Shown piece by piece: positions 16,322 through 59,416 of a DNA stretch of 64,000 bases. This DNA comes from Verrucomicrobiota bacterium (GTDB lineage: Bacteria; Verrucomicrobiota; Verrucomicrobiia; Limisphaerales; CANJXF01). Both the position numbers and the translations under genes were made by a program. The stretch lies in assembly GCA_043775015.1 (NCBI GenBank), contig JAYVSV010000047.1, positions 67,876 to 131,875 on the forward strand, read 5' to 3'. The notes beneath the pieces were generated by a model that saw only the letters and a list, made by a program, of their open reading frames with translations, ran no database searches and had not been told where the DNA came from. Within the stretch, counting starts at the first letter, position 1, and every line of letters begins with the position of its first letter.

Positions 16322-16342
16322 ATTTTTAATTTCAAATTCAAA

Positions 16343-16711: not shown

Positions 16712-16744
16712 CTCAAAACTGGACCGACGATTTACAAACTTTCC

Positions 16745-17200: not shown

Positions 17201-17388
17201 AAATATTTTGACCAATCTAGCGAGGTGCGAGGCGATGAGCAACAAGTCAGAAGCAGAGGGGTTTCGCGCGAAGCGGACGAACGTAGCGAAGTGAAACGAA
17301 GGGGAATTTCTTTGCGGCCTTCGCTTACTTTGCAGCCGTCGCGCGAAATTCTTTTCCAATTTTTGGATAGTCAGTAACGTATGGTTTT

Positions 17389-18174: not shown

Positions 18175-18275
18175 ATCGTTCGCCGGGCGATTTGCGTCTA
18201 TAGCTGGGATCAAAATCGTCCGTTGAGCCTTTTGCGCAACAGCGGAACTGGTTTTCACGTTCGTAAATAAATTGT

Positions 18276-19604: not shown

Positions 19605-19606
19605 GC

Positions 19607-33713: not shown

Positions 33714-33860
33714 AACATCAATCTGCCGATAAAAGCTAAACCATTTTGCCGGGACACATTCGCATTCTGCCCGGTTCCTAGCATAAATTTCCAGAAAACT
33801 TCTTGTTTCGCGGTCAGCCTACCTCTAAAACGCAGGCTTGTTGCCGATTAAAATCTAAAT

Positions 33861-40161: not shown

Positions 40162-40186
40162 ATTTAGTTTTCCCTCAAGCAGTTCA

Positions 40187-40987
40187 CTACTTAAGATATG
40201 CGGCTGCGGCTTGGATGCGGGCCACATCAGGATTATTTGGTGATGCGACGTTTAGGAAAATTTGCGCCCCTATAGGAAGCATAGTTCTGGGGTCGGACCA
40301 CTGCCAATATTCGATATGTCCGTCGGCCATGGAAAGATTAGCTCCGCCGAGATGAAAGGAACCTGGATAATCCACTAAGCTTTCTTCTGGGGCGTTGGTA
40401 AAAAACTCTGCATCGTTGATGCTATTGGGATGCTCGTCTAGGAACACGAACATGCGACCTGGCTGAGAGATTTCAGAAATTTTAGTCATACTTCGGTAAT
40501 TCTGGCCCCATTGTGAGCCTGTAGATCCCATAAACGCATTCATTGAATAGCTTCGCACTCGCAGTTTCGGAACTCCCCCAATCAGCAGAGTGGATGGATC
40601 AGCAGGGCATCGAAACAGCGATGAGGAATTCACATAAGGTCCGATGGCCGCGTAAGTCGCGTTCGTCAAATTCAAGGTGTTGGTATTGGCAGAATTCGAA
40701 ACATTAAAGTCTATGTTGCCGCTAACCCATGGTTTATTATTAGATCCCAAAGAGTTGGAAATGAGGTTGCCGGAATAATCATCAGAATACATGTGCCAGG
40801 CGACCATCAAGCGGCTGAGGTTATTGGCGCATCGTGCCCGGTCTGCGGATGTTTGACTGTGGGCCAACCCGTTCAAAGAGAGCAGCCCCAACAGGGTTAC
40901 AACGGTCAGCACGACTAAAAGTTCAATGAAAGTGAATGCAGGCTGATTCCTCCGATCATTCCTCGCTGCGGCCCAAAGTGGATTCAT
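40187..40987 (-). CDS. Prepilin-type N-terminal cleavage/methylation domain protein (DUF1559-like)
   Basis: PAFTFIELLVVLTVVTLLGLL, and a C-terminal GGANLSMADGH. It lies 25 bp upstream of the PD40 gene on the same strand. The ATG at 40987 is preferred. Confidence 0.8.
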   Translation of the reverse strand: MNPLWAAARNDRRNQPAFTFIELLVVLTVVTLLGLLSLNGLAHSQTSADRARCANNLSRLMVAWHMYSDDYSGNLISNSLGSNNKPWVSGNIDFNVSNSANTNTLNLTNATYAAIGPYVNSSSLFRCPADPSTLLIGGVPKLRVRSYSMNAFMGSTGSQWGQNYRSMTKISEISQPGRMFVFLDEHPNSINDAEFFTNAPEESLVDYPGSFHLGGANLSMADGHIEYWQWSDPRTMLPIGAQIFLNVASPNNPDVARIQAAAAYLK

Positions 40988-41073
40988 GGAGCGACACTGG
41001 GTTAACATGCCTCTGAGGTCAATTCGAAAATCAGGTGAAAACCTGGCCAATACGTGAGTGTTTTGGCGGCGAA

Positions 41074-41183
41074 AGGAATTCACAGTTTAACCAAAGAAGA
41101 GCACGCCTTCCTCAGCGGCGTTTCCGACAAGTACAAAAGACGGGCGGAATCCAAGAAACCGGAATCCAAGTTGGTCATTTGAA
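41074..41183 (+). pseudogene. Orphan duplicate of the rhomboid gene 3' end (last about 36 codons plus stop)
   Basis: It aligns with 36781-36890 and encodes GIHSLTKEEHAFLSGVSDKYKRRAESKKPESKLVI*. The intact gene ends ...KKPKSGLII*. Confidence 0.9.
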
Positions 41184-42848: not shown

Positions 42849-43060
42849 CCATCCGCCCTTGGCAGTTTTAATATCATTTTTCAGTGCCCAACTCGACTGA
42901 ACCGTTTCTGCTGATGTCTGGAGAACCGCGCGAGAGGTCTCTGCCTACGCACAATCACAAAACGCCTTGACCGCTTGTCATCTAAAAGATAACAGTCATG
43001 GACAAACTTTGGCATAGTCGCGCCGCAAATTAAAAACCTGTGACAACCAACTTTCCAGCA

Positions 43061-46000
43061 ATGCCATCGAATTCTGTCTTGCGTCGCCTATGGTTCCTTT
43101 TTCCATTCGTTCTGCTTCCACTCGTAGAAACCACTGCGAGGGCCAGCCCAACGATCATGCGCGTCAATCAGAACGCGCCCGTCAGTTCCAGGCGTGACGG
43201 GACTTCGTGGGCCAACGCTTACGTAAACCTATCCATGGCCATCAGCAACGCCAATCCGACGGCCAACAGTCCGGTTGAGATTTGGGTCGCTCAAGGCACC
43301 TATAAACCGACCGCCAGCACAAATCGAAATGCCACCTTTGGGCTCAAGAGTTACATGTCAATTATGGGAGGATTTGCCGGCATTGAAACAACGCCCGAAC
43401 AACGTCTGTTTTTTCAAAACGCCACCGTGTTGAGTGGTGACATTGGTCAGCCTCAGATAAACCCGATCAAAGACAGCACGAACGCACAGCCGTTCTACAA
43501 CTCGGTTTATCCGGTTGACGTGGAAGATTCCGGTCTTCGGGATAATTGCTACAACGTTGTCACCGCTGTGGGCGTTACCAACGCAGCGCTGGAGAAGCTC
43601 ATCATTGCCGGAGGCTGCGCCAATGGACTCAACACCAATGGACAACCGTATTCTCCGACACAGATTGAGGACATGGCCACGATGGCACTCACCGAGGAAA
43701 CTCAGGGCGCTGCTTTCAACGCTTTCATGGCTGGCAAACCGATGGCCGAGCTTGGACGCGCGATTGCTGGCGGCGGCATTTTTGTTTCAGACCGTTTCGA
43801 GCGATCCAGCGCGGAGCCGACTCTGGTGGTGGAACGGTGTATTGTCATGGGCAATTACGCTCTCGGCTATGGTGGAGGGATCGCGGTGCAGCAAGCCGAC
43901 ATTTTCGTCCTCGACAGCTACATTTCCGGCAATCGATCCGGCGCTGAAGGAGGTGGCTTTTGGGGACAGAACCAACACTCGGCTTTTATTGGTTGCGAGT
44001 TTCGCGCCAACACAGCTCTACTCTCGGGCGCAGGCATCCATCAGGAATCTTGGCCTTCGACAAAAACTGTTGTTCCCAGTCTGTCGGATAGTCAATTCAA
44101 GGCACAGACAACCCTCTCGCGGCAGGAATATCACAACTTCGTCGCCTCTGGCCTGGCCATGTTCAAACTCTCCGCCCTTTCCAGCTTCGTTCCGCTCGAT
44201 GATGTGGATCAGCGCGAGGCCTCCTACCGGGAATCCGAGAGATTCCAAGCGTATGTCGTCGAGAAGGATATGATTATGGGGCGGACCGCTCTGGCTCTTA
44301 TGGCGGTCAAAGGCCTTTATACTGCCTATGAAACTGGACAAGGCTCCTTGTCCCTTGGTCTCATCAAATACAAATCCGGCGGGGCGATGAACGCTTATGC
44401 CGTGGTCGCCGCCGCCGTCGCGCTGGTAGATGCGGGCTTTGCTATTGCGCAATGGGCGGGTGTCAGTCCCGACAATCAGCATGTAAAAAATTGGCAGGCT
44501 TTTAGCGGCCCTTTCAATAAGTACGCCACCATTAATGGCCTAGCTATGACCATTTCCATCGCGGCGATTTGCCATTTTACGGATTGCAACGAAAGCATCG
44601 AGACCTCTGCCTGGGACGTCAAACACTGGCAACGGCTGGCGTTCAATAGATCCGATCCCCGTACCATCACTAACTGCCGGTTCATCGACAATTTAGCTGG
44701 CAGCACCGGCGGTGGCGTTTTTGTGCTCTACGATAACGTCGATATCGAAGGTTGCGAATTTACCGGCAATCGTGCCGATGTTGGCGGAGGCGGACTTTAC
44801 CAGGGAGGTTGGAATTCATCCTTTGTTCTCAATTCCGCGTTCCGAAATAATCACTCCATCCTTGGAGAAAGCGCCATTGCCAATAAAAGCCATTGTCTCG
44901 CCGAAATCGTCAACTGCACGATCATCAACAACGGCTCCGAAGACACCAACGGTTATGCTGTTTCCAGCGACTCTGGCGCTGAAGTTCAAATCGCCAACTC
45001 GATTCTTTGGGGTAACACCAACGCTCTTGCCACAAACTCGCTCGGCGGAGCGGATGTTTTTGTGCCTACTCGCGCCTCAATTATCCAGTCAGCGCTGTCG
45101 GCTACTCCTCCCGATACAAATACTATTAAAGATCTCAAAAGCGCGGGCGCGAGTTATGTGGATTACATCGGTTTGTGCGAAATCAGCCATAGTTGTGTTC
45201 AAAGTTTGAAGCGTCTCCCCATCGGTCAGGATCATTTTGAGAAATTCGTCCTAGCTGCGGGCGATCTGGAAAAAGCCCGGGGTTTGGCCGCGGATTTTGA
45301 TTACGGCGAACCACGCGGACTCTTGCGGCTCTTCTCTTTTTATAATACCGGCGAAGGCATCCGCCCGAATTTGCTCAAGAATGGAAATATCAATTCCGAC
45401 CCCATGCTCACCGTCCATTTTGAATCCCGGTTTATAGGTTTGCAGCCGGGCGAATTCTCGCCGGTGATTGACGCCGGGACCGGGTTGCGACTGGACAACG
45501 GCTGGGTCGATAGCGGCACGGGAACGGATATTGTCGGCGAAGCGCGTGTCAAAGGCGGCAGCATTGACATGGGCTGCATTGAAAGTCAGCTCCCGCCGAC
45601 GATGTATGTTCGTCCCGCGTTTGTTGGCGGAAATGGCAGCGGCGCCAATTGGGCCAATGCGACAACCAATCTGCAATTTGCTTTGAATTCCGGTGGTAGC
45701 GTTTTCGTTGCGGCTGGCACCTACAAACCGCCGGAAAATAATCCCGCCAATCGGTTTATCCTGAAGAACGGCTGCAAAGTCTTTGGCGGTTTCAATCCCG
45801 CTGCCGGAATCACAAACCTGGCGCAGCGAAATTTCACGACCAATAAAACCATCATCAGCGGGGACATCGGCGCGATTGGAAATGATTCAGATAACAGCCG
45901 CACTCTTTTTTATGCCGAGGATGTGGATGGGCCGCAGGAGGATATTTCCGAAGGGCGACTGGAAACTTTCGTGGACGGATTTATTTTTACCAAGGCAAGA

Positions 46001-49000
46001 GGACTGGCGGTAGGAGGTGTGCCAGATGCTGCCATTGTGGCGATTCGTTCCGCTTTCGAAATCCGAAATTGCACCTTCGAGGATAACCGTACGGCAGGAC
46101 GTGGGGCCGCCGTTTATTCCACGGGAACCGCCTATGGCCCCATCCTCACTAACTGCGTTTTCACGGACAACCACGCGACTCAAGATGGCGGCGCGATATT
46201 TTATGGCTCGCGCTTGTGGGCGCGGAACTGTCAGTTCCTAAACAATAGCTCTGGTGGTTCAGGCGGCGCGGTCTGGCTCGACTCCGCTTTTGGTTACTTC
46301 TGGAATTCGTTGTTCGCAAATAACGCGGCCACCAATAACTCCGCGAATGGCGGCGCGATTTATTCTTCCGAGGCGGACCTCGTGCTTTACAGTTGCACGC
46401 TGGCAAATAACCAGGTCCGTTCCAGTTCACCGACGACACGCGGCGGGGCCGCTGTTTATTTTGTAAATAACGGCGCGAATAAATATTTCTCAGCGAAGGA
46501 ATGCATCTTCTGGCAGAACCGGGTCTTGAATTCCTCCGCCAGCCTCGAACGCCAGCAATATAGTTACGTGGTTCCAGATTCCCAGAAACTGTTTTACGTC
46601 CGCGATAGTATTGTTGAAGGCGTTCAGCCGGCGGCCCCTTATCAGCCTGATCCGCGCAATCTGGATCTCGACCCGCAATTCGTCGATGCCACGGGCGGAA
46701 ACTTCCGGTTGCGACCTTATTCACCTGCGATTGATGCGGGCCAGCGCGAACTCGGAGGCAGCGATCCAAATATTGATTTGGACGGTTTCCCGCGAGTGGC
46801 CAATGTGCGACTGGATTTGGGCGCGTACGAATTTCAAGATGCTCCCATCTTCATAAGTGCTGATCTGAAATTGACCCGTGAATGCAGATCTGAGGGGTCG
46901 ATCATTTATCTTACATTTACCAATGCGTCGGCGTTGGGAACGAATGGAGTAGGCCTGAGTTTTCAATGGCAATTAAACCGCAATGATGGAAATGGATTTC
47001 TTCCGATCACCAATGGATCAGATTACGCCGGAGTGACGACAACCAACCTGACAATTCTTCATCCGTCATTTGAGAACAACGGTTATCGCTACCGAATTTT
47101 TGCGACCAATCCCAACCTGTCCTTTTCTTCCGGCAGCGCTTATCTGTTCGTTCAACCTTCCCGACTGTATGTCAAAGCCGACGCCACCGGCAAAGGAACT
47201 GGCCGTGATTGGACCAATGCTTTTCCCACCTTGCGCGCGGCGCAAGATGCAATTGATTTATTTGAGCCGGAATTGATTTGCGCTGAAGTGTGGGTGGCAG
47301 CGGGAACCTATCTTCCGACGAGCGACGGCGATACGAATAAAACTTTTTACCTCCGTCCCAATGTGGCTTTTTACGGCGGCTTCGGCGGTTGGGAAACTAC
47401 TCGGAGCCAACGGAACTGGCGCACGAACCTCACGATTCTGAGCGGCAATCTTGGAAATCCCGCCAGCATCAGTGACAACAGCCTGACTCTCTTCCGCGCT
47501 CCTTCTCAACCACCCGTTGATGCAACGGCGATCCTCGATGGATTTATTTTGAGGGACGCGCAATATCACGCGCTCGATTTGCTCGCGGGCAGTCCCATAG
47601 TTCGGAATTGTGATTTCGTCAGCAACCTGTGCGACTCGGCCGTGAGCAGTTGGCAGTCAGCCCCGCAATTTGAAAACTGCAGATTCATGGATAACGTTTC
47701 CGTGTTTTCCACATTCCGCAGCTTCAGCGCCACGAACACATTGATTAATTGTCTTTTCGCGCGAAATCAATCGCCTCATTTAGGCGGCGCGATTTCGTCC
47801 TATTCCTCGAAAATGATTTTGCAGAACTGCACCATCGCAGATAATCACTCGGAGAACGACGGCGGCGGAATTTATCTTCAAGGAAACGGCGGACAATTCA
47901 CTCTGATCAGTTCCATCCTGTGGGGCAATCAATCGGGATCGGACGCGAGTGCGTTCGCCGCGCAAATTCATAACGATCACAACGCCGCCAGCGTTACGCT
48001 CTCCAACTCGATTGTGAGCGGTCTGCCTTTGCCCGCGATCAACGGCAATCAAGCTTTCGATCCATTGTTTGTTGGTTCTGCCAATTACCAACTCACCGCT
48101 TTCTCGCCTGCAATCAACGCCGGCGGGCCAACGAATTCTTTGACCGTTCAAACTGATTTGGCGGGAACGAATCGCGTGACTGGCGGCGCGGTGGATTGCG
48201 GCGCTTATGAATTTCAAGGCACGCCGGCAATTACTCCGGCGCTGCTGGTGCAATTGCCCAACCCCGTGACGACGTGCGTGGGCGCTGGGCCAGTCGGTTT
48301 CACGGTGGTGGGCACAAACAATCCCGAGATCGTTTACCAATGGCAGGTTAATTCCGGCGGCGGCTTCGTGACTTTATCCAACAACGCGACCTACACGATT
48401 TCGGTTTCCAGCAACAGCTCGACGCTCACCATTCCAAGTCCGACACTGGGCCTGAACAGCAATCTTTATCGCGTTACCATTCCCGCAATCAACTACACGA
48501 ATCCAGCCGTTTCCCTGACCGTGCTTCCGCCGAGTGTGTTGTATGTGAATGCGTCCGCCAGCGGTTCCACCAATGGAAGTTCGTGGGCCAACGCCTTCAC
48601 GCAATTGGAAGATGCGCTCGATATTGCAAACGGCTGCAATGAAATCTGGGTCGCGCAAGGAACGTATCAAGCGCGCACCGACCAATTTAATTTCCGACCT
48701 AACGTGCCCCTCTATGGCGGATTTATTGGAACCGAAACATTGCGCAACCAACGAAACTGGACAAACCATCCAACCGTGCTTCTGGCAAAAACCAACTCCG
48801 TGATTTTTCGGGGCAGGGGCGATTTGCAACTCATCGATGGCGCTTCCGTGTTGGATGGATTCAATTTGCACAGCGCGCAAATTGTTCCCGCCATTTCGCT
48901 CTATCAGGCCAGCCCAGTCATCCAAAACTGCACCTTCGAAAATCTTCCCGGCTCGGCGATGGACAACAGCTTCTCCAGTCCGGCGATCAGCAATTGCGTG

Positions 49001-52000
49001 TTCACCGCCTGCCAGGGAGGCGCGGTCCGTAATAGCCGCTGCGCACCGACGTTCATGAATTGTTTGTTCGCGCGAAACACAAACGGGAGCATCGGCGGAG
49101 CGATCTTCAACAACGCCGCCAGTCCATCGATTGAAAATTGCCGATTCGAAACCAACTCTGCGACGTCGGGCAGCGCGATTGAAAATGACAACGGCTCCAG
49201 CCCTGTTATTTCACGCAGCGTGTTCGTTGGAAATCGCAGCAGCAGCGGCGGAACAGTTTTCAACAATGTCGGCACCTCCGTTCAACTGATCAATTGCCTG
49301 TTCGCGGCTAACCAGTCAGACCATCTCGGCGCAGCGATTGCCAACAATGGCGCAGAACTCCTGCTGCTGAATTGCACGATGGCCAACAACCAGGCTGCGC
49401 GCGGCGGCGGTGGCATGTTTGTTTACGGCGGCCACGTCACCAGCGTGAATTCCATTTTTTGGGGCAACAGCGTGCAAGACCTCACCTTCATTCCAAACCG
49501 CGAAGTCGAACAAATTGGAACAATGCCGGGCGCAACTTTGTCCGTCACCAACACGTGCATCGAAGGATTGTCCGCTTACGTCGGCAACGGCAATGTTCGT
49601 TATGATCCACTCTTCACTGACGCTGGCGGCGGAAACTTCCGGCCCGGTGCCTCTTCACCCGCGTTAAACAGCGGCAACAATAGTGCGGTCGCCGATGTCG
49701 CCGCTGATCTCGACGGCAGTTCTCGCATCTTCGGCGGCTCGGTTGATCTGGGTGCTTACGAACGTCAGTCCGCTGCTGGCTCAATTGTCCTTTTACTTGC
49801 CGCGCCAAAATCTCAAAGCGTCTGCATCGGAGAAACTGCAACTTTCACCGCCATCGCGGAAACAAATTATGGCGGCGCGTTGCAATGGCAGGTGAACACC
49901 GGCAGCGGATTCATCGATGTCGTGGCCGATAGCACGCATCAATTCACAGTCAGCAACGGCGTTTACACGCTTCAGGTTTTGAACACGACGGTGCTGATGA
50001 CCGGGCGTAATTACCGGGTCAAAGTTGCGGCAGCAAATTATGAATCATCGAGCGCGATGCTGATTGTGTCACAGCCGGGCGTGATCTACGTGAAGGCCAA
50101 TGCGGTTGGCGCGAACAACGGTTCTTCCTGGGCGGCGGCCTACACGAATTTGCAGCAAGCGTTCGCGCAGGGAAATCGTTGTTCCGAAATCTGGGTCGCG
50201 CAGGGAACCTATCCCGCAACGCAAGCCGCCGATGGCACTTACTTTTTCTCGATGAAACCGGGCCTCGAAGTTTACGGCGGATTCGCGGGAACAGAAATTA
50301 ATCGCACCGACCGAAATCCCGCTCTCTACAAATCCATTTTGGTTGGAGTCGCCGGTGCCGAGGCGGTGGTCGTGAGTCGCGGAGATTTTTGGACGATCAA
50401 CGCCAGTTCCGTTTTGGATGGTTTCGTCATTCATGCGCCCGACAGCCACGGCATCAAAAATTTTCGGGCAAGCCCGACTATTCGTCAGTGCATGATTGAT
50501 AGCCAAAAAGGCGTGAGCGTCGCCGAGGCCATAGCCGGCGCGGGAATTTATAATCTGAATTCGTCCTCGCCGATTATCAGCGATTGCGTGCTGACCAACA
50601 ATTCATCCGGCGGCATTGTTAATTTCAACTCGTCTTCGCCGCAGATTTCGAACTGTGTTTTCCAGGCCAATAATAATTCCGGAATCATCAACGTCTCTGA
50701 CTCGAATCCGACGATCAACGGTTGCGCATTCGTGAACAATCACGCGATGAACGGCGCGGGGATTTTCAACCAAAACTCGTCGCCGCTCATCCGACGCAGT
50801 CGTTTTGAAAGCAACGTCGCCACCAATGAAGGCGGCGGCATTTTCACCATCTCCGGCACGCCAGTGTTGGAACAACTCGTGATGCTAAACAATCAAGCCG
50901 TGCGCGGTGCAGCGATGTCGCACGCCGGTGGCCTCGTGAAATTGGTGAACTCCACGCTCTATGCAAATCAAGCCAGTGGCGAAGCCGGTGGATTGTTTGG
51001 CAATGGCGCTGGCATCCAGGTGTTGAACTCAATTCTCTGGGCCAACACGGCCGGAGTCTCGGGACCCACCGTTGAACAAGCCCAGATTCAAATCAACGCG
51101 GGCACAGTGGCAATTTCAAATTCTTGCGTGCAGGGACTCAACGCCTTCGCTGGCAACGGCAATATTTCGACAGACCCGTTGTTCGTTAATCCGCCGTTGG
51201 GAAATCTATCGCTCGCGCCTCATTCGCCCTCGATCAACATCGGCAACAACAGTTTTCTCACTTCGGCAATGGCCATCGATTTCGCAGGCAACCCGCGAAC
51301 TAACGGCATCGTGGTTGATCTCGGTGCTTACGAAGCGACATCGGTTTCACCGCCCGTCACAATTTTTTCCACACCAATTTCAACGACGGTTTGTTCCGCC
51401 AGTCCCGCGAGTTTCACGGTCGTCGGCGCTGTTCCGGGAACAAATTTTATCTGGCAGGTTTACGACGGCACAAATTTCGTGGATGTGATTTCGAATTCCA
51501 CGTATCAAGTCACCAACGGCACCAACAGTTCGGTTTTAACGGTCAGTTCTGCACAAGCCGGATCGAATTACCAAATTCGTTTTCGTGTCAGCGGCACAAC
51601 GTTCACGTCGGTCCCCGTAACTCTGCAAGTGAGTCTTCCACAATTGTGGTACGTCAACGCGACGGCGACCAACGGCACGGGCGACGGTTTGTCGTGGTCG
51701 AATGCCTTCACGGACCTGCATCACGCGATGGAAGAAGTGCCCGATTGCTCGGAAGTTTGGGTGGCGGCGGGAACCTATATCGCCATGCAAGGAGAAATGT
51801 TTCATCTGCGTTCGGCCGTTGCATTTTATGGCGGCTTCTCCGGAACGGAAACCAATCGAAATCAACGCGACTGGGTTCAGCATCAAACCATCCTGGCCGC
51901 CTCGCCCGATTCGGACATGATGCATAACAACGGCGGAGAAACGTCGGTTGACCGCACGGCCATTCTGGACGGTTTCGTTATCAGCAATGCAGGCAATGTT

Positions 52001-55000
52001 TCTGCCGCGATTCAAAACCACGCCGCTTCACCTACCATTCGGAATTGCGTCTTTGCAGGGAACAATCAACGAGCCGTGCTCAACAGCGACGCGTCGCCTG
52101 CGTTCGTGAGTTGCGTTTTCAGCAACAACTCCGGTGGCGGCGTGTTGAACTGGGACAGCACGGTGGAATTCGAGCAATGCGTTTTCTCCGGCAACGGCAT
52201 CAGCGACGGCACGGTCGGCGCGGTTTACAATCAGACATCGTCCACCCAGTTCCGCGATTCCATTTTCAAAAACAATGCGGCGTTGCGCGGCGGAGCCATT
52301 GCCAACGTTTTGAGCAGCACGTCTGTCGTGGAGCGTTGTTCGTTTGAAAATAATTCAGCGAAAGTAGAAGGCGGCGCAATTCTCGGGCGGCAATCCAGCG
52401 TCAGTGTGCGGAACAGCGTGGTGGCCAATAATCGCTCGGCGGGTTACGGCGGCGCGATTGCCAATCTCAGCGGGCAACTGGAATTGGTGCAATGCACGCT
52501 CGCAGAAAACACGGCGGCGTTCAGCGGGGGCGGTGTTTACGGCAACGCTTCGCAAAGCACGGCGAGAAATTCCATTCTCTGGGGTAACCGGGTTAACACC
52601 CATGGCTCGACGTTGCAGCAGGCGCAATTGCTCGACGACAACGGAATTCTGAGCGCGACAAATTCCATCATCGAAGGATTTACTGCCGTGTCGGGCGCAA
52701 ACAACTCCGCTGCGAATCCAATTTTTGTGAATCCCGTCGCTGGTGATTTTTCTCTGATGAAAAATTCGCCGGCGATTAATTCGGGCAATGCTACGGAAAC
52801 TCTGGCGGGTTCCATTGATTATCCCGGTCAACCTCGTTTGGTTGGTGGCGGACTCGACCGCGGCGCTTTTGAATTCCAGAGTGCTCCCGGTGCTGCACTG
52901 CTTTTCGCCCGACTTCCGCAGTCGCAAACAGTTTGTGAAGGAAACTCGGTGAGTTTTGAAGTCGTGTCGCTCGGCAGCAGCAACGGCGCGCTGCAATGGC
53001 AGAAATTTTCGGGCAGTGTGTTTACGAATATTTCGAACGCTGGAAGTTACGCGATCACAACCAACGGGCCGACCAATTCGCTCGCGATTTCTCAAGCCAC
53101 GTTGAGCATGGACGGAAATTTGTTCCGCTTCGTTATTCCAAGTTCGGATTACACGTCGCCGGAAATTACTTTGCACGTCAACGCGGCTTCGGTCGTTTAC
53201 GTGAACGGCAGTAATGCGGTTTCTGGAAACGGATTCACCTGGGCTACTGCCGTCAAAACATTGCCGGAGGCCGTTGCGCTTTGGACGCCGTGTTCTGAAA
53301 TCTGGGTCGCTGCCGGAACGTATGTGCAAACCAACAACGCCGGTTTTGGTGTCTCGCTCGCTTTGCCGTCGCCCATGCGAATTTACGGCGGATTCGTCGG
53401 CACGGAAACCAATCGCAATCAGCGTAACTGGCCGGCCAACGTGACCCGCCTCGCCACCTCCAGCACTCGGCCATTGTTTGAAAATTTCGGAAGCCTCGCG
53501 ACGATCGACCATTTGGCCGTGCTGGACGGGCTGACTTTTTCTGGCGCAAAAGGCAATGCGATTTTCAATCACCTGGCTTCTCCCACGATTCGCAACTGCA
53601 CCTTTGAAAATAATTCGGTAGCGATATTTAATTCGCAACAATCCAGCCCGCTGATCGCGAATTGCGTGTTCCGCAACAACACGAATCTTTTTGGCGGCGC
53701 GGTTTACAGTCACGCTTCGTCACCGACGATTGAGGATTGCGTGTTCCAGAATAATCGATCTCTCGAACGGGGCGGCGCCATGCTGATGATCGGCGGCAAC
53801 GCGGTCGTAACCCGATCTCAATTCCTGAATAACCGCAGCGAAAAATTCGGCGGCGCGATTTTCGTCGAAGGCGACGGTTACATGTCGGTGGCGCAATCTT
53901 CATTTGTCAGCAATAGCGCGGCGGATTGGGGCGGTGCGTTTACCATCTCCGAAAGCGCCGGGATTATTTCCGATTGTTTGTTCGCGCGGAACCGTTCGGA
54001 TTATCGCGGCGGTGCCATCACGGTTTTGGCATCGGACGTTGCAGTTAAAAACTGCACGATCGTGGAAAACGAAGCGGGATGGACTGGAGGCGGAATTCAA
54101 GTTTACGACCCGGGTTTGACCATCACGAATTCCATCCTTTGGAGCAATCGCCAGGGCAATACGCAGGAAAGTTTGGAACGCAGGCAAATCGCTTATTCGT
54201 TGAGTGCAACTCCTGTTGTCGTCAACACAGTCGTCGAAGGACTCGATGCGCTCAGCGGAAATGGGAATCAAAACTTTGATCCGCTTTTCGTAAATGCTGC
54301 GTTCGGAAATTTTCGACTCACACAATTCAGTCCGGCGATTAATTCGGGCGTTGGCATCGCTGCTGGAACGACTGACCTCGATGGCAATCCTCGTGTTGTG
54401 GACGGAACTTTGGATCGCGGCGCTTTTGAGTTTCAAACCGCCACAGGAACTGACCCGCGATTTTACCTCTACCAAATGCCGCAGTCAGCGACGGTCTGCG
54501 TCGGCGATTCCGCCTTTCTGTCGTTTACGTTCCTGCCAAATCCGGTGTTGAGTTACATGTGGCAACTCAACACGGGCAGCGGTTGGTCCACTGCGCCGAT
54601 TAACAACGGAACGTATTTCCTCACCGTCACGACCAATTCGTCCACGCTGATGGTTTCGAACGTGACGGTAGGAATGAGTGGAACGCAATACCGGTTTATT
54701 GCGTCGTCGAATAATTTTCCAAGCACCTTCGCATCGCCGCCCGCAACGATCACCGTTTCTGTTCCCGGCGTTCTGTTCGTAAAACAAAACGCCGTGGGCA
54801 ATAACTCCGGCACGGATTGGGCGAACGCCTTCACGAATCTGAATCTCGCCATCAACGCGGCCAATCGTTGTTCAGAAATTTGGGTGGCGAGCGGCAATTA
54901 TCTGCCTTCAACAAACGGCGCAGTGGCGATGAAAGACGGCGTCGAAATTTACGGCGGATTCGCTGGCGCAGAAACCTCCGTTTCACAACGCAACTGGACG

Positions 55001-58000
55001 AACAATCCGACAATACTCAGCGGCAACAGTGCGAGCGGCTACCTCGTCAACAACGGATTCTATGCTCCAGTGACGCGCGCCGCCGCGCTCGATGGATTTA
55101 TCATCACCGGCACGAACCTGACTACCGGCCTTGTGAACACACACGCCAGTCCGACCATTCGCAACTGCCAGTTTATCAGCAATCGCTACATCGCTTCGTC
55201 TGTCACCAGCGATTCTCATCCGTTGTTCGAAAATTGTTTGTTCTACAGCAATAATTTTGGAGCGATCGATATTCGCGACAACAGTTCGGCCGTCATCACA
55301 AATTGCGCTTTCAACGGCAACACGACTGAAGGACAGGGCGGCGCGTTGAGCGTTTTGAATTCCACAGTGGTCGTGGACAGAAGTAGTTTTGCTTCCAATT
55401 TCTCGGCATACGGCGGCGGCGCAATTTTCCTCAACCAAGGCGGCGGTATCACTGCGCGGCACTGCATTTTCACTGGCAACTCCGCCAATGGCGAAGGCGC
55501 AGCCCTCCTCGCTGAACCGGGTGCGAGTGTCGTCACAATGACCAACTGCCTGATCGTTCGGGGTTCGGCGTTCACGGGCGGCGGCGTTTCCAGTTACGCA
55601 CCGATTACGGTGGTGAACTGCACTTTCGCAGCGAACACGGCTTACGCGCGTGGCAGCGGTTTGTTCATCAGCGGAACCACCGGCTCAGTGCGCAACACAA
55701 TTCTTTGGGCTAACTCCGACACTTACTCCGCATACGGCAATTTGGAACTGGCGCAACTCGAAGCGCCCGGTGCCACAATTTTAATTGCGAATTCAGTTCT
55801 CCAAGGTCTGTCGAATTACGTCGGCAATTCCAACGTGCCTTACGATCCATTGTTCGTTGATGCCGCACAAAATAATTTTCGATTGCAGGACAATTATTCA
55901 CCCGCCGCGAACGCGGGAAATAATTCTTACATCGCCGGAGTCGGTTCAGATCTCGACAACAACGCACGCATTTTCTCCAGCACAGCCGTGGACATCGGCG
56001 CTTATGAGTCGCTGACGTTCAGCGGCACGCCGGTTTACATTTTGAAACAGCCGGAGTCGGTCGTCACTTGCAACGGCGAAACCGTTAACTTCTCCGTCAC
56101 TGGCGCATCCGGAATGGGAGCTGGATTTACGTGGCAGAAAAAATCGCCGGGCGGAATTTTTGAGACGGTGGTTGCTGGCGGAAATTACAGCATCGCGACA
56201 AACAATTCTTCGTCCACGCTCACGATTCAAAATGTCAGCACGTCGCTCAGCGGTTCCGAATTCCGAATTCGTTACCTCCCGCCTTCCGGTCAATATTTCA
56301 GTCCGCCCGCGCAACTCACGGTCACTGCGCCAAAAGTTATTTTCGTCAAAGCAACCGGATACGTTGATGGCGACGGCGAAAGTTGGTCCACCCCTTACAC
56401 CTCGCTTCAAACCGCCTTGGCCGCCGCCAGTTCCTGTCGCCCCGAAATTTGGATTGCTGCTGGAACTTACTATCCAACCGCCGGCACGAACCAATCGGAC
56501 AGTTTCGACATTCCAAATGGCATTCGTGTCTATGGCGGTTTCGCCGGAACAGAGACGTTGTTGTCTCAACGCAATTGGACGAGCAATCAAGTGGTATTGA
56601 GCGGCGACATTGGCGCGATTGGAAATACAAACGACAACAGTTCGTATGTCGTTTCGTTCAATGGATTGGGGAACCCGATCAATCAATCCACGATTCTGGA
56701 CGGAGTCACAATTGAACGAGGTCAGAGCGCCGGCCTGATTATCTTTTACGCCAGCCCGACCGTGCGCAATTGCGTGGTCCGATCCAATAACGGCTCCGGC
56801 CTCAACCTTACCGGCGGCGGACCACGGGTGGAACAATGCACCTTCCACTCCAATCGCGGCGCGAGCGGCGCCAACGTGACCGACGCGGTGAATGCGGCGT
56901 TTGTGAACTGCCATTTCTCGGGCAACACGTCCGCATCTCTCGGCGGCGGCATTTCTTTGGTGAACAGCACAGTCGGTTTGACGAACTGTCTTGTCTCCGG
57001 GAACACCGCCTCGTTTGGTGCCGGTGTCGGGTCCTTCGGCGGCACAGCCTCGATGATCAATTGCACCGTCGTGGGAAGTGCTTCGACGGGAAGTTCCGGC
57101 GCGGGCCTGGGTGCGTCCAGCGGAAATTGGTCGGTGCGCAACAGTATTCTCTGGGGCAATCGTGCAGGCGCGTTGGAAACCGAAGCCGCGCAATTATCAT
57201 TCTCCGGCAGCTTCAGCGTGAGCTACACGGCGATCCAAGGATTGTCCGGTTTCAACGGAAATTTCAATCAAGGTGCCGATCCTATTTTCGCCGCCCCGGT
57301 TTTAGCCACCCTCGCTCCCACACTGCTTGGCGACTACACGCTCGGAACTTGCTCAGCGCTGCTGAACGACGCCGACGCCAGCGCTCTCGCCGGGATAACC
57401 AACGATCTCGCCGGGAATCCACGCCAGGCCAACGGAGGTCCTGATCCGGGCGCATTCGAATTGCAAACACTCGGCGGCGATCCGGTCTATATCGCTTCTC
57501 AGCCAACCAATATTATTTATTGCTCTTCGCAATCGAATTTTTTCCAGGTGACGGCCTCGTTTTCAAATCTCAATGTGCTGACTTACCAATGGAAAATATT
57601 TGATCCGAACAGCGCGACATTTCTCCCCGTGACAAACAGCGCGGTATTCTCAGGCGCGAATACGCCGAAGCTCGATGTCCAGTCGCCCACGCCTGATCTC
57701 AGCGCCGCACAATTTCGCGTTACCGTCACGACGCCGATTGGATGCTCCGCTATTTCGCAATCCGCCCAATTGCTAATTCCCTCTCAGCAAACGTACGTGC
57801 GCGCCGGCGCTCCTCCTGGTGGCAACGGACTTTCGTGGGCCACCGCCTACACCAATTTGCAGTCAGCAATTCTTTCCACATGCGCCCCGGAAATTTGGGT
57901 GGCCGAAGGCACCAACTTTTCGAGCACTGCTTTTACATTGCGCAACGGCGTGGCGGTTTATGGAGGGTTTACTGGCACGGAAACGAACCGAAACCAGCGC

Positions 58001-59416
58001 AACTGGATAACTCATCCCACTAAATTATCGAGCAGCGATTGGTATGTCATGGACATCATGCCTTCTGCTGGAAATCCGATGGATTCCTCTGCGCGTCTGG
58101 ACGGCTTCATCATCGATGGTGCCGACAATGCTCTTAACATCTGGGGCCTGGAAGCGTCGGCTTCTCCGGTCTTCGCCAACTGCGTGTTTAAGAACACCCG
58201 GAACCCCGCCATCTACCTTCAAGACTGCTCGCCGTCCTTCCAGGACTGCACTTTCGATAACAACAACACACTCGGAACTTCATCCAGTGGCGGAGCTCTT
58301 AGTGCGTGGAACTGCACCGTGAATATCGACCGCTGCATGTTCCGCGGAAACCGAGCTTCTTACGGTGGTGCCATCGCCGGTGGCGGTGGTGCCTTCCATA
58401 TCGCGAACTCTCTGTTCAGCGGCAACCGTTCCACCTACTATGGTTCCGCTCTCAGCATCAATGACCCGTTCGTTCTGCGTAACTGCACCGTCACCGGCAA
58501 CCGTTCTCTCCAAACTTACGGGGCGGTTTCTGGCGGTACGGTTACCCTGATCAACTCAATCGTCTGGAATAACCAAGGTAATTCTGGCTTTGATTTTCAG
58601 TCGCAGTTTGACGTCGGCGACTCACTCACGCTCAGCAATACCATTGCGCAAGGTTATAACCCTGATGACTACTGGTGGGTCCAGGGCAGCGGCATCAGCA
58701 GCGCAAATCCGCTCTTCCTTGCGGCAGTGAATCCAGCGAGTGCGCCAACCACCGTCGGCGACTTGCGCGTTGCTTCCTGCTCGCCAGCCATCGACAGCGG
58801 GATCAATGCGGAAACCGTTGGGCTGATCGACATCGTCGGCAATCCGCGAATTGCGGGAGCTGCTACGGACATGGGTGCATACGAAGCACTCCCCAGCTCG
58901 CTTTTGATGGTCACACTTCAACCGACGAGCACCTTCGGTAATGGTTCCACTTCTGTACAATTCTCGGTAGTCGTCAACCAAACCAACGTTAATTATCAAT
59001 GGGAAAGTAATATTTCCAACCTCTTCACAGCACTGTCCAACGGCGCCGGTTACTCAGGCGTGACGACTGCAACATTGACGCTGACCAATCCCGCTCCTTC
59101 TCTGAACACAAACGAATATCGCTGTCGCATTCAGGACTCGTCTGGATGCGTGGTTTACTCTCAAGCGGCGCGCTTCCATTTTCTCCTTAGCCCCGTGATC
59201 TCCACCGCGGTAATTGCCAGTGGTCAATTGAAAATCGAATTCACCAGTTCACCTGGCGCGACTTTCACAATCTTCGGAACGACGAATATTTCCCTCCCGA
59301 TAAGCCAGTGGACCCTGTTAGGCGGTGCCGCAGAAATTTCTCCGGGTCAATTCCAGTTCACAGAATCAATCGTCATAAACCGTCCCGCGCAATTTTATCG
59401 AGTAAGGTCTCCATAA
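43061..59416 (+). CDS. Giant secreted modular protein (about 5,451 aa): ten tandem beta-helix (PbH1 / choice-of-anchor-Q-like) modules, most followed by an Ig-like domain, ending in a ...QFYRVRSP C-terminal domain
   Basis: One uninterrupted ORF with a signal-peptide-like MPSNSVLRRLWFLFPFVLLPLVETTARA. Module starts are near 43153, 45602, 47165, 48539, 50084, 51647, 53195, 54773, 56339 and 57791. Each carries W(V/I)A.G(T/N)Y, YGGF.G.E....QRNW and NC.F..N coils, then NSI(L/F)WGN...DP(L/I)F...SPAI(N/D).G...GAYE. Most also carry an Ig-like segment, often with a YQWQ-type motif. Confidence 0.85.
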   Translation: MPSNSVLRRLWFLFPFVLLPLVETTARASPTIMRVNQNAPVSSRRDGTSWANAYVNLSMAISNANPTANSPVEIWVAQGTYKPTASTNRNATFGLKSYMSIMGGFAGIETTPEQRLFFQNATVLSGDIGQPQINPIKDSTNAQPFYNSVYPVDVEDSGLRDNCYNVVTAVGVTNAALEKLIIAGGCANGLNTNGQPYSPTQIEDMATMALTEETQGAAFNAFMAGKPMAELGRAIAGGGIFVSDRFERSSAEPTLVVERCIVMGNYALGYGGGIAVQQADIFVLDSYISGNRSGAEGGGFWGQNQHSAFIGCEFRANTALLSGAGIHQESWPSTKTVVPSLSDSQFKAQTTLSRQEYHNFVASGLAMFKLSALSSFVPLDDVDQREASYRESERFQAYVVEKDMIMGRTALALMAVKGLYTAYETGQGSLSLGLIKYKSGGAMNAYAVVAAAVALVDAGFAIAQWAGVSPDNQHVKNWQAFSGPFNKYATINGLAMTISIAAICHFTDCNESIETSAWDVKHWQRLAFNRSDPRTITNCRFIDNLAGSTGGGVFVLYDNVDIEGCEFTGNRADVGGGGLYQGGWNSSFVLNSAFRNNHSILGESAIANKSHCLAEIVNCTIINNGSEDTNGYAVSSDSGAEVQIANSILWGNTNALATNSLGGADVFVPTRASIIQSALSATPPDTNTIKDLKSAGASYVDYIGLCEISHSCVQSLKRLPIGQDHFEKFVLAAGDLEKARGLAADFDYGEPRGLLRLFSFYNTGEGIRPNLLKNGNINSDPMLTVHFESRFIGLQPGEFSPVIDAGTGLRLDNGWVDSGTGTDIVGEARVKGGSIDMGCIESQLPPTMYVRPAFVGGNGSGANWANATTNLQFALNSGGSVFVAAGTYKPPENNPANRFILKNGCKVFGGFNPAAGITNLAQRNFTTNKTIISGDIGAIGNDSDNSRTLFYAEDVDGPQEDISEGRLETFVDGFIFTKARGLAVGGVPDAAIVAIRSAFEIRNCTFEDNRTAGRGAAVYSTGTAYGPILTNCVFTDNHATQDGGAIFYGSRLWARNCQFLNNSSGGSGGAVWLDSAFGYFWNSLFANNAATNNSANGGAIYSSEADLVLYSCTLANNQVRSSSPTTRGGAAVYFVNNGANKYFSAKECIFWQNRVLNSSASLERQQYSYVVPDSQKLFYVRDSIVEGVQPAAPYQPDPRNLDLDPQFVDATGGNFRLRPYSPAIDAGQRELGGSDPNIDLDGFPRVANVRLDLGAYEFQDAPIFISADLKLTRECRSEGSIIYLTFTNASALGTNGVGLSFQWQLNRNDGNGFLPITNGSDYAGVTTTNLTILHPSFENNGYRYRIFATNPNLSFSSGSAYLFVQPSRLYVKADATGKGTGRDWTNAFPTLRAAQDAIDLFEPELICAEVWVAAGTYLPTSDGDTNKTFYLRPNVAFYGGFGGWETTRSQRNWRTNLTILSGNLGNPASISDNSLTLFRAPSQPPVDATAILDGFILRDAQYHALDLLAGSPIVRNCDFVSNLCDSAVSSWQSAPQFENCRFMDNVSVFSTFRSFSATNTLINCLFARNQSPHLGGAISSYSSKMILQNCTIADNHSENDGGGIYLQGNGGQFTLISSILWGNQSGSDASAFAAQIHNDHNAASVTLSNSIVSGLPLPAINGNQAFDPLFVGSANYQLTAFSPAINAGGPTNSLTVQTDLAGTNRVTGGAVDCGAYEFQGTPAITPALLVQLPNPVTTCVGAGPVGFTVVGTNNPEIVYQWQVNSGGGFVTLSNNATYTISVSSNSSTLTIPSPTLGLNSNLYRVTIPAINYTNPAVSLTVLPPSVLYVNASASGSTNGSSWANAFTQLEDALDIANGCNEIWVAQGTYQARTDQFNFRPNVPLYGGFIGTETLRNQRNWTNHPTVLLAKTNSVIFRGRGDLQLIDGASVLDGFNLHSAQIVPAISLYQASPVIQNCTFENLPGSAMDNSFSSPAISNCVFTACQGGAVRNSRCAPTFMNCLFARNTNGSIGGAIFNNAASPSIENCRFETNSATSGSAIENDNGSSPVISRSVFVGNRSSSGGTVFNNVGTSVQLINCLFAANQSDHLGAAIANNGAELLLLNCTMANNQAARGGGGMFVYGGHVTSVNSIFWGNSVQDLTFIPNREVEQIGTMPGATLSVTNTCIEGLSAYVGNGNVRYDPLFTDAGGGNFRPGASSPALNSGNNSAVADVAADLDGSSRIFGGSVDLGAYERQSAAGSIVLLLAAPKSQSVCIGETATFTAIAETNYGGALQWQVNTGSGFIDVVADSTHQFTVSNGVYTLQVLNTTVLMTGRNYRVKVAAANYESSSAMLIVSQPGVIYVKANAVGANNGSSWAAAYTNLQQAFAQGNRCSEIWVAQGTYPATQAADGTYFFSMKPGLEVYGGFAGTEINRTDRNPALYKSILVGVAGAEAVVVSRGDFWTINASSVLDGFVIHAPDSHGIKNFRASPTIRQCMIDSQKGVSVAEAIAGAGIYNLNSSSPIISDCVLTNNSSGGIVNFNSSSPQISNCVFQANNNSGIINVSDSNPTINGCAFVNNHAMNGAGIFNQNSSPLIRRSRFESNVATNEGGGIFTISGTPVLEQLVMLNNQAVRGAAMSHAGGLVKLVNSTLYANQASGEAGGLFGNGAGIQVLNSILWANTAGVSGPTVEQAQIQINAGTVAISNSCVQGLNAFAGNGNISTDPLFVNPPLGNLSLAPHSPSINIGNNSFLTSAMAIDFAGNPRTNGIVVDLGAYEATSVSPPVTIFSTPISTTVCSASPASFTVVGAVPGTNFIWQVYDGTNFVDVISNSTYQVTNGTNSSVLTVSSAQAGSNYQIRFRVSGTTFTSVPVTLQVSLPQLWYVNATATNGTGDGLSWSNAFTDLHHAMEEVPDCSEVWVAAGTYIAMQGEMFHLRSAVAFYGGFSGTETNRNQRDWVQHQTILAASPDSDMMHNNGGETSVDRTAILDGFVISNAGNVSAAIQNHAASPTIRNCVFAGNNQRAVLNSDASPAFVSCVFSNNSGGGVLNWDSTVEFEQCVFSGNGISDGTVGAVYNQTSSTQFRDSIFKNNAALRGGAIANVLSSTSVVERCSFENNSAKVEGGAILGRQSSVSVRNSVVANNRSAGYGGAIANLSGQLELVQCTLAENTAAFSGGGVYGNASQSTARNSILWGNRVNTHGSTLQQAQLLDDNGILSATNSIIEGFTAVSGANNSAANPIFVNPVAGDFSLMKNSPAINSGNATETLAGSIDYPGQPRLVGGGLDRGAFEFQSAPGAALLFARLPQSQTVCEGNSVSFEVVSLGSSNGALQWQKFSGSVFTNISNAGSYAITTNGPTNSLAISQATLSMDGNLFRFVIPSSDYTSPEITLHVNAASVVYVNGSNAVSGNGFTWATAVKTLPEAVALWTPCSEIWVAAGTYVQTNNAGFGVSLALPSPMRIYGGFVGTETNRNQRNWPANVTRLATSSTRPLFENFGSLATIDHLAVLDGLTFSGAKGNAIFNHLASPTIRNCTFENNSVAIFNSQQSSPLIANCVFRNNTNLFGGAVYSHASSPTIEDCVFQNNRSLERGGAMLMIGGNAVVTRSQFLNNRSEKFGGAIFVEGDGYMSVAQSSFVSNSAADWGGAFTISESAGIISDCLFARNRSDYRGGAITVLASDVAVKNCTIVENEAGWTGGGIQVYDPGLTITNSILWSNRQGNTQESLERRQIAYSLSATPVVVNTVVEGLDALSGNGNQNFDPLFVNAAFGNFRLTQFSPAINSGVGIAAGTTDLDGNPRVVDGTLDRGAFEFQTATGTDPRFYLYQMPQSATVCVGDSAFLSFTFLPNPVLSYMWQLNTGSGWSTAPINNGTYFLTVTTNSSTLMVSNVTVGMSGTQYRFIASSNNFPSTFASPPATITVSVPGVLFVKQNAVGNNSGTDWANAFTNLNLAINAANRCSEIWVASGNYLPSTNGAVAMKDGVEIYGGFAGAETSVSQRNWTNNPTILSGNSASGYLVNNGFYAPVTRAAALDGFIITGTNLTTGLVNTHASPTIRNCQFISNRYIASSVTSDSHPLFENCLFYSNNFGAIDIRDNSSAVITNCAFNGNTTEGQGGALSVLNSTVVVDRSSFASNFSAYGGGAIFLNQGGGITARHCIFTGNSANGEGAALLAEPGASVVTMTNCLIVRGSAFTGGGVSSYAPITVVNCTFAANTAYARGSGLFISGTTGSVRNTILWANSDTYSAYGNLELAQLEAPGATILIANSVLQGLSNYVGNSNVPYDPLFVDAAQNNFRLQDNYSPAANAGNNSYIAGVGSDLDNNARIFSSTAVDIGAYESLTFSGTPVYILKQPESVVTCNGETVNFSVTGASGMGAGFTWQKKSPGGIFETVVAGGNYSIATNNSSSTLTIQNVSTSLSGSEFRIRYLPPSGQYFSPPAQLTVTAPKVIFVKATGYVDGDGESWSTPYTSLQTALAAASSCRPEIWIAAGTYYPTAGTNQSDSFDIPNGIRVYGGFAGTETLLSQRNWTSNQVVLSGDIGAIGNTNDNSSYVVSFNGLGNPINQSTILDGVTIERGQSAGLIIFYASPTVRNCVVRSNNGSGLNLTGGGPRVEQCTFHSNRGASGANVTDAVNAAFVNCHFSGNTSASLGGGISLVNSTVGLTNCLVSGNTASFGAGVGSFGGTASMINCTVVGSASTGSSGAGLGASSGNWSVRNSILWGNRAGALETEAAQLSFSGSFSVSYTAIQGLSGFNGNFNQGADPIFAAPVLATLAPTLLGDYTLGTCSALLNDADASALAGITNDLAGNPRQANGGPDPGAFELQTLGGDPVYIASQPTNIIYCSSQSNFFQVTASFSNLNVLTYQWKIFDPNSATFLPVTNSAVFSGANTPKLDVQSPTPDLSAAQFRVTVTTPIGCSAISQSAQLLIPSQQTYVRAGAPPGGNGLSWATAYTNLQSAILSTCAPEIWVAEGTNFSSTAFTLRNGVAVYGGFTGTETNRNQRNWITHPTKLSSSDWYVMDIMPSAGNPMDSSARLDGFIIDGADNALNIWGLEASASPVFANCVFKNTRNPAIYLQDCSPSFQDCTFDNNNTLGTSSSGGALSAWNCTVNIDRCMFRGNRASYGGAIAGGGGAFHIANSLFSGNRSTYYGSALSINDPFVLRNCTVTGNRSLQTYGAVSGGTVTLINSIVWNNQGNSGFDFQSQFDVGDSLTLSNTIAQGYNPDDYWWVQGSGISSANPLFLAAVNPASAPTTVGDLRVASCSPAIDSGINAETVGLIDIVGNPRIAGAATDMGAYEALPSSLLMVTLQPTSTFGNGSTSVQFSVVVNQTNVNYQWESNISNLFTALSNGAGYSGVTTATLTLTNPAPSLNTNEYRCRIQDSSGCVVYSQAARFHFLLSPVISTAVIASGQLKIEFTSSPGATFTIFGTTNISLPISQWTLLGGAAEISPGQFQFTESIVINRPAQFYRVRSP

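Follow-up and report, generated by a model that had tools for sequence, protein, structure and literature searches.

A conserved module ends four secreted proteins of one genomic window

What does it mean when several otherwise different secreted proteins, encoded close together, finish in the same way? This question is raised by a 64-kb stretch of Verrucomicrobiota DNA (contig JAYVSV010000047.1; hereafter the window, i.e., the whole stretch that was analyzed), for which an initial annotation had proposed that four secreted proteins of different kinds end with one type of tail and that this tail is a candidate sorting or anchoring signal. Our analysis revealed that all four proteins end in the same module, a beta-sandwich of ~75 residues and six strands that resembles fibronectin type III (FN3) domains, and that many adhesin-like or enzyme-like envelope proteins exported by Sec have this module as their obligatory last domain.

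All four window proteins carry N-terminal Sec-type signal peptides, as judged by inspection, and the translations originally quoted for their tails are exact. The largest is a giant protein of 5458 amino acids (aa) that is encoded by a single open reading frame (ORF) on the plus strand (43040..59416) and combines a signal peptide, about a dozen Beta_helix units, and 8 choice_anch_Q domains with Chlamydia PMP repeats, DUF5123, and immunoglobulin (Ig) domains. Its terminal module, of the 'RFYxxRSP' subtype, spans positions 59177..59413, and the stop codon lies at 59414-59416; the protein as a whole is a PMP-like passenger without an autotransporter barrel. A 1021-aa secreted protein with a signal peptide and Ig_3/I-set repeats (24540..27605, plus strand) ends in a module of the 'RFYQLRSP' subtype (27369..27602; stop codon, 27603-27605). 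The third protein, a PD40 beta-propeller/TSP3 secreted protein of 1065 aa (37030..40227, minus strand), likely starts at an internal Met (MKIGYLAFLL...) near 40161 that precedes its signal peptide, and its module at 37033..37287 (stop codon, 37030-37032) is of the 'TYRVQFK...QRYYRILVVP' subtype. Finally, a beta-helix/choice-of-anchor Q secreted protein (21729..23099, minus strand; signal peptide, MNIKNFNLWQGVLALCATVFFINPAAAA) is 456 aa long in the public record P0283 and corresponds to a 523-aa ORF in the window. Its choice-of-anchor Q domain (NF041518, 73 bits against a cutoff of 25) occupies residues 386-453 of that ORF, and the module follows directly at 455-527 (stop-to-stop ORF numbering; 21732..21950 in the window, stop codon at 21729-21731) in a divergent 'KYFRLRAQ' form.

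The similarity among the tails is more than chance, because two kinds of hidden Markov model (HMM) recovered all of them. In leave-one-out trials, the held-out tail ranked first among 890 six-frame ORF segments in all four cases, with E-values of 1e-4, 2e-6, and 9e-3 for three tails and 0.5 for the beta-helix tail. An HMM built from 235 external module copies, with no window sequence included, found the Ig protein at E = 5.8e-20, the PD40 protein at 9.8e-18, the giant protein at 1.9e-15, and the beta-helix protein at 6e-7, bearing out the claim that four otherwise different secreted proteins share a tail type. Its envelopes finish on the last residue of all four proteins, and it gave no further match in the window at E < 0.5. 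The common pattern described initially stands as to the shared tail and has been corrected in its details: the beta-helix tail is a divergent subtype, and the conserved core consists of a W in strand 2, Y.V in strand 3, a second W ~12 residues on, a D ~10 residues before the end, and then R-(F/Y)-(Y/F)-R-(V/L/I) with 3-4 further residues, usually closed by a terminal Pro.

The module lies flush with the C terminus of Sec-exported cargo

A six-frame scan of 201 kb of external genomic DNA, which is independent of gene calling, uncovered the module in 20 ORFs, 9 of which were by-catch rather than search seeds. In every one of them (20/20) the module runs right up to the stop codon, and a single copy is present in 19. 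Together with the window proteins, 24 of 24 genomic ORFs end flush with the module and 23 of 24 have a single terminal copy; the earlier observation of a conserved module at the extreme C terminus of diverse signal peptide-bearing cargo is supported. Short fragment proteins from a second profile search gave the same picture (flush in 115 of 115). Among the best 148 representatives of the family, a copy lies no more than 5 residues from the end in 133, the median distance being 0, and all 23 of the single-copy proteins in this set have it at the terminus. The end itself is also uniform: in 99 of 115 terminal copies, 4-5 residues follow the (F/Y)(F/Y)R motif before the protein ends, and Pro is the last residue in 84 of 117 terminal copies, compared with 31 of 254 internal copies that have Pro at the same offset.

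The cargo preceding the module is diverse and includes Beta_helix, PMP repeats, choice_anch_Q, Ig_3/I-set, PD40, TSP3, BspA-type leucine-rich repeats (LRR), a sialidase lectin insertion, PATR, Peptidase_S8/P_proprotein, Calx-beta, He_PIG, Big_3_5, Big_9, and DUF5122; no cytoplasmic-type family was seen among the cargo domains of module proteins. Signal-peptide scoring of the top 150 metagenomic proteins was uninformative, as most of these are N-terminally truncated, and homologues of the beta-helix protein were used instead. More specifically, a query with this cargo devoid of its tail retrieved 3,503 homologues at E <= 1e-10, and the ends were compared in the 120 that were listed. In 71 of these 120 the module is flush at the end, and two additional homologues (P0345 and P0401) carry a divergent '...FRLRSQ' form missed by the HMM. 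A classical signal peptide is present at every intact N terminus among the 71, of which there are about 50; the remaining proteins are plainly truncated. A type I secretion system C-terminal signal was ruled out, since the cargo proteins carry Sec signal peptides.

The same comparison revealed what else can stand directly after choice_anch_Q, the hallmark of a cargo family whose very definition is that its anchors vary. In P0353 this slot holds a type IX secretion system (T9SS) type A sorting domain (Por_Secre_tail, 35.5 bits against a cutoff of 23), and in P0372 an IPTL-CTERM domain (32.8 bits against a cutoff of 20.5). Other homologues end there in CarboxypepD_reg, Big_5, DVUA0089/PPC-like, or small Cys-rich domains. 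Because the module takes the slot that T9SS type A and IPTL-CTERM domains have in homologous choice-of-anchor Q cargo of other lineages, the sorting or anchoring idea gains support; as ordinary sandwich domains can stand there too, this placement speaks for a localization role without deciding the matter.

A large, uncatalogued family in Verrucomicrobiota

A 21-sequence profile run against 1.84 billion representative proteins picked up the module in 25,596 representative clusters at a threshold of E <= 1e-3 and in 3,272 at E <= 1e-10. At E <= 1, the four tails have no match to a model of Pfam-A (2025 copy) or NCBIfam (release 20). When 63 diverse copies were scanned singly against Pfam, no consistent family emerged: the commonest matches, all sub-threshold, were to F5_F8_type_C(_2) (8 of 63) and AlcCBM31 (3 of 63), fn3 was not matched by any copy, and Big_6, Big_3_3, and aBig_2 appeared sporadically (1 of 63 each, E >= 0.006). 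No account of the module turned up in searches of the literature. The family is thus very large and uncatalogued, and apparently undescribed.

All named sources of tail-bearing proteins are Verrucomicrobia/Verrucomicrobiota, Chthoniobacterales, or Pedosphaera. As far as source names show, the family is apparently specific to Verrucomicrobiota, and the module is present many times per genome region. The six genome loci recovered with the RFYQLRSP subtype, all from metagenome-assembled genomes (MAGs) of Verrucomicrobiota or Verrucomicrobiia, give a narrow taxonomic picture, since the locus scan covered that subtype only. In two Verrucomicrobiota MAGs (loci L002 and L003), homologues of the Ig protein with 61-63% identity keep the tail and are syntenic with the Ig region of the window. 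Together with the source names, these loci mark the window itself as verrucomicrobial. L002 also contains, at 4706-15359, tandem module-bearing Ig-repeat paralogues, several of them apparently split by frameshifts. Profile searches with the tails alone returned short fragments only and are uninformative on architecture. Very short module ORFs (57-134 aa) in L012 and L013, located on error-prone long-read contigs, look like pieces of larger genes, so that stand-alone 'mini' module proteins in databases need caution.

A predicted FN3-like sandwich with a shortened end

Confident AlphaFold2 models of the PD40 tail (pLDDT 84, pTM 0.74) and the giant-protein tail (pLDDT 89, pTM 0.74) are all-beta with six DSSP strands. 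In Foldseek comparisons against the PDB, the best matches were FN3 domains (Tencon, monobodies, NCAM, Dscam, neogenin, and DCC) with TM scores of 0.59-0.68 and a probability of ~1.0, and E-values never reached 1e-3 (E >= 0.015 for the FN3 matches). Small carbohydrate-binding sandwiches were matched as well, namely the N-domain of an insect beta-glucan-recognition protein, which belongs to carbohydrate-binding module (CBM) family 39, and CBM48; no T9SS C-terminal domain (CTD) structure was among the top 50 matches. A sequence search of the PDB with the family profile yielded a partial match to the CBM32/discoidin domain of a Paenibacillus glucanase (E = 8e-6; profile positions 8-64 against residues 51-108 of 136, the module being half the size of a discoidin domain) and marginal matches to FN3-like domains, i.e., 3mpc from Clostridium (6.5e-3) and FN3con (0.057). 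Homology to human 10Fn3 was rejected, as it came down to a trivial 12-column 'RYYRI' match.

From the models and matches we conclude that the module is an FN3-like sandwich whose chain finishes as soon as its F-like strand, R-(F/Y)-(Y/F)-R-(V/L), is complete; the seventh (G) strand appears to be absent, judging from strand counts and alignment lengths. Structure prediction had been suggested as a way of telling a plain sandwich from a cleavable tag, and it shows a folded beta-sandwich domain rather than a tag of the PEP-CTERM or GlyGly-CTERM type. The module shares with FN3 and bacterial Ig-like stalk domains the fold class, a B-strand Trp, the C-strand 'Y.V', tandem arrays, and Pro-rich linkers. 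It differs from them in having no fn3, Big_, or Ig profile match and in apparently missing the G strand, and FN3 domains follow no end-of-protein rule comparable to that of the module. The initial annotation had named a generic Ig/FN3 family without positional bias as the outcome that would speak against its proposal; what we found is a generic fold combined with no such profile match and an extreme positional bias.

Terminal copies differ from internal ones

Some module proteins also contain internal copies, and the two kinds can be compared. Terminal copies best match the terminal copies of other proteins above expectation (odds ratio [OR] = 22), and this preference persists after excluding protein pairs with homologous non-module regions (OR = 7.5, p = 7e-17). 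The identity of a terminal copy to its internal siblings is 43%, versus 57% among internal siblings (Wilcoxon p = 2e-6). In addition, copies contain on average 0.46 Cys when internal and 0.15 when terminal. Terminal copies appear in these sequence comparisons as a distinguishable subpopulation. In five giant proteins (P0021, P0025, P0027, P0029, and P0040), the internal copies belong to a Cys-containing subtype, '...NLC..W...C.D.PTPYRFFRV', and the last copy is of the ordinary Cys-free 'RFYRLxxP' type.

Comparison with known sorting and anchoring systems

Sorting tags have been recognized by their C-terminal location, their presence on several unrelated cargo proteins per genome, and the N-terminal signal peptides of those proteins, and the tripartite tags consist of a signature motif, a transmembrane helix, and an Arg cluster within about 20-35 residues (doi 10.1101/2023.06.07.544157). 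The module is like the tripartite tags (PEP-CTERM/exosortase, GlyGly-CTERM/rhombosortase, IPTL-CTERM, and MYXO-CTERM) in location, unrelated cargo, and signal peptides, and it shares its slot with IPTL-CTERM, as seen in P0372. It differs from them in being a 75-residue soluble beta-sandwich without a helix-length hydrophobic stretch or an Arg cluster.

Where it sits, how large it is, its fold class, and the logic of its cargo make the module most like the T9SS type A CTD of Bacteroidota (TIGR04183/PF18962). Both are ~70-80-residue folded beta-sandwiches at the extreme C terminus of diverse Sec-exported cargo, both are lineage-restricted with many copies per genome, and both use the identical slot in choice_anch_Q cargo; PMC4804311 and PMC11285876 likewise describe T9SS CTDs as extreme C-terminal beta-sandwiches of a similar size class on Sec-dependent cargo. 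The CTD is a 3+4 seven-strand sandwich (PMC11285876), whereas the module has six DSSP strands, and an hhalign comparison of the family profile with the bona fide CTD of P0353 gave a probability of 0.4%. Moreover, the CTD occurs once per protein and never internally, whereas the module forms internal tandem arrays, and the PorU-type cleavage or attachment to A-type lipopolysaccharide (A-LPS) known for the CTD has no known counterpart for the module. Homology to the T9SS CTD was rejected on the basis of this hhalign value, the lack of a Pfam or NCBIfam match at E <= 1, the absence of a CTD family from the Pfam matches of the 63 copies, and the lack of a CTD among the top 50 fold matches. No T9SS is known from Verrucomicrobiota.

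SLH, CWB2, GW, and choline-binding repeats as well as dockerins are terminal modules that, as single copies or short arrays, hold diverse secreted cargo on the surface non-covalently, through an envelope polymer or a partner protein to which they bind. In function they would be the closest parallels to the terminal copy and terminal arrays of the module; they are mainly monoderm families and are not known to be related to it in sequence or fold.

Gene neighborhoods

Genes for SprA/Sov, PorK/L/M/N, PorU/V, and an exosortase are all absent from the 64-kb window, and the earlier statement that no matching sorting machinery is evident there holds. A gene for a rhomboid-family intramembrane protease (Rhomboid plus DUF6576; 36012-36890, plus strand) abuts the PD40 gene, with 140 bp between its end and the 3' end of the latter. 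A rhombosortase/GlyGly-CTERM link through this neighbor was rejected, as its score with the rhombosortase model, 44 bits, falls short of the cutoff of 84 and the module lacks a transmembrane segment; the rhomboid is a generic one and probably unrelated to the module.

Pseudopilin-like genes were considered as partners. Immediately upstream of the PD40 gene and on the same strand lies a DUF1559/prepilin N-methyl (H-X9-DG) pseudopilin-like gene (40187-41083, minus strand), and a second one is found at 13873-14544 (plus strand); both are consistent with an origin in the Planctomycetota-Verrucomicrobiota-Chlamydiota (PVC) group. Homologues occur among module genes in L003 (3707-4660, between module genes) and L002 (1042-1869). 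In L009 (positions 1-18985 of a 10.5-Mb contig, ERZ25074506), a T2SS-F gene and three N-methyl pseudopilin genes stand directly upstream of the gene for P0055, together with three genes whose products resemble Verru_Chthon cassette proteins D, C, and A at the N terminus only and below threshold. P0021, P0025, P0040, P0058, and P0091 share the N-terminal 'MRF.SRTWFLL.LLFF' signal-anchor of P0055. A pseudopilin (DUF1559 or Verru_Chthon-like cassette) as a general partner, a lead from three places, was not upheld, as such genes are absent from 4 of 4 further module-gene neighborhoods on long contigs; the association is retained as a lead. Module genes are scattered among housekeeping genes, an arrangement compatible alike with a dispersed sorting regulon and with ordinary genes.

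Genes for an HlyD-family adaptor, an ABC ATPase, and a MacB/FtsX permease, which make up a MacAB-type tripartite pump (18276-21573, plus strand), are convergent with the beta-helix gene. No link between this pump and the module emerged, and the pump was rejected as an unsupported exporter: the genes are convergent, the instance is single, and the size of the cargo is much too great. A TonB C-terminal domain protein (minus strand) and a TonB-dependent receptor (plus strand) are encoded divergently just upstream of the rhomboid gene (33009-35993 for the pair). The window further contains a cbb3-type cytochrome oxidase cluster (5184-13664, minus strand), which comprises a fused CcoN-CcoO (747 aa, COX1 plus FixO), a FixP-like subunit, FixG, FixH, a DsbD_2 membrane protein, and a FixI-type P-type ATPase. 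An amidase and a complete MmeI-family type IIL restriction-modification enzyme (240-3458, plus strand), in which none of the five Pfam domains of MmeI is missing (N, helicase spacer, MTase, TRD, and C), are also encoded.

Does the module localize its cargo?

We propose, tentatively and at a little short of an even chance, that the terminal module has a localization role, be it surface retention or export recognition, as a folded domain with a free C terminus. In such a scheme, cargo would be exported by Sec and would then fold in the periplasm, where the terminal module might be recognized as a folded domain with its C terminus free. Recognition would either bring the cargo onto or through the outer membrane, or keep it at the surface via binding to an envelope component. 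Internal paralogous copies would act as stalk or spacer units, and the terminal module would not be a cleavable transmembrane tag.

Several observations weigh against this role. The genes of the window include no candidate for sorting machinery, and no neighbor gene recurs across the neighborhoods examined. Neither a cleavage motif nor a transmembrane segment or Arg cluster is found in the four tail sequences. The fold is a generic one that faintly resembles carbohydrate-binding modules, and the slot after choice_anch_Q is also taken by ordinary sandwich domains. The module is not confined to chain ends. In the top-150 list, which is score-biased toward tandem-array proteins since whole-protein scores sum over copies, 345 of 478 copies are internal; arrays reach about 9 clean copies with Pro-rich linkers and the same RFYRV strand, and a few members with ~100-residue periodicity look like true FN3 cross-matches. 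One array was found among the 20 unbiased external genomic ORFs, in P0055, a 2,994-aa S8 protease with 8 contiguous copies up to the stop codon. Internal occurrence, which the initial annotation had named as a finding that would count against its proposal, is thus partly borne out by these arrays. The terminal and internal consensus are nearly identical, and we know of no sorting signal that forms internal tandem arrays near-identical to its terminal copy. The greater divergence of the terminal repeat would also be expected from plain tandem-repeat dynamics.

Much of this would be accounted for if the module were an ordinary FN3-like structural or adhesive repeat, i.e., a spacer or generic interaction unit with no sorting role that came to stand last through domain accretion at the 3' ends of genes. 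The generic FN3/Ig-like fold (TM 0.6-0.68 to FN3 domains), the frequent tandem arrays with Pro-rich linkers, the closely similar terminal and internal consensus, the other plain beta-sandwich domains that end homologous cargo, and the lack of machinery or a conserved neighbor in the window and the neighborhoods examined all fit such a repeat. It would nevertheless leave unexplained that 24 of 24 genomic ORFs and 115 of 115 fragments end exactly with the module, that the chain stops 4-5 residues past the last strand and mostly on Pro, that terminal copies resemble one another even after homologous cargo is removed, and that 23 of 24 unbiased genomic cases have a single terminal copy rather than a stalk array. 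We regard this explanation as conceivable though doubtful. A small CBM-like binder of carbohydrate or another ligand, directed at an external polysaccharide or another cell and serving the action of the cargo rather than its location, is suggested by the partial CBM32/discoidin profile match (Paenibacillus glucanase, E = 8e-6), by F5_F8_type_C(_2) (8/63) and AlcCBM31 (3/63) as the commonest weak Pfam matches, by fold matches to CBM39 (the insect beta-glucan-recognition N-domain) and CBM48, and by cargo that includes lectins, LRR adhesins, and proteases. These similarities all lie below family thresholds, Foldseek E-values never reach 1e-3, and the match covers only part of the ~130-residue discoidin/CBM32 jelly-roll, a much larger domain; in addition, CBMs are not normally flush with the C terminus in 100% of cases. 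We consider such a binder improbable, noting that it overlaps with an anchor that binds glycan of the cell's own envelope, which would itself be a form of localization.

Very improbable is an export signal of the strict T9SS CTD type, one that a translocon would read and that would then be cut off in exchange for a lipid or glycan anchor. Size class, beta-sandwich fold, extreme C-terminal position, and Sec-dependent cargo are alike (PMC4804311 and PMC11285876), and P0353 carries a T9SS CTD in the same slot. Against this stand the absence of any sequence relation (no match at E <= 1 in Pfam/NCBIfam; hhalign, 0.4%), the six strands instead of seven, the lack of a T9SS CTD in the top 50 fold matches, the existence of internal arrays, and the lack of T9SS-like genes in the window. 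For the broader proposal of sorting or anchoring, the conserved terminal module, its diverse cargo, and the shared slot speak in favor, whereas the internal arrays, the generic fold, and the failure to find machinery speak against it; the idea is still viable, but unproven, because the positional bias is extreme. In its most ambitious form, the localization role would amount to a new system in Verrucomicrobiota, in which a folded six-strand FN3-like signal with a free '...RFYR-x3-4-P' end directs many and varied Sec-exported proteins to the surface and is read by a putative outer-membrane or pseudopilus-associated component. We think it rather unlikely, though worth stating, that such a system exists and that it parallels the T9SS CTD of Bacteroidota in function while having evolved independently.

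Meaning for the surface proteome of Verrucomicrobiota

The 25,596 representative clusters without a Pfam or NCBIfam model constitute a sizeable annotation gap, and the module provides an easy in silico marker for the surface proteome of a phylum that is abundant in soil, freshwater, and gut. To our knowledge, the route by which giant adhesins, beta-helix proteins, and enzymes are displayed on the surface of Verrucomicrobiota and other PVC bacteria is essentially unknown; these bacteria are not known to have a T9SS, and many such surface proteins are without autotransporter barrels or PEP-CTERM tags. If the module were only a stalk or binding domain, it would still deserve a family definition, and its strict end-of-protein rule would need explaining. 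Exosortase, rhombosortase, and the T9SS sortase were found via phylogenetic profiling. If the module is indeed a localization signal, phylogenetic profiling with its HMM should expose the machinery, and a long-standing question about how these bacteria display their surface proteins would become testable.

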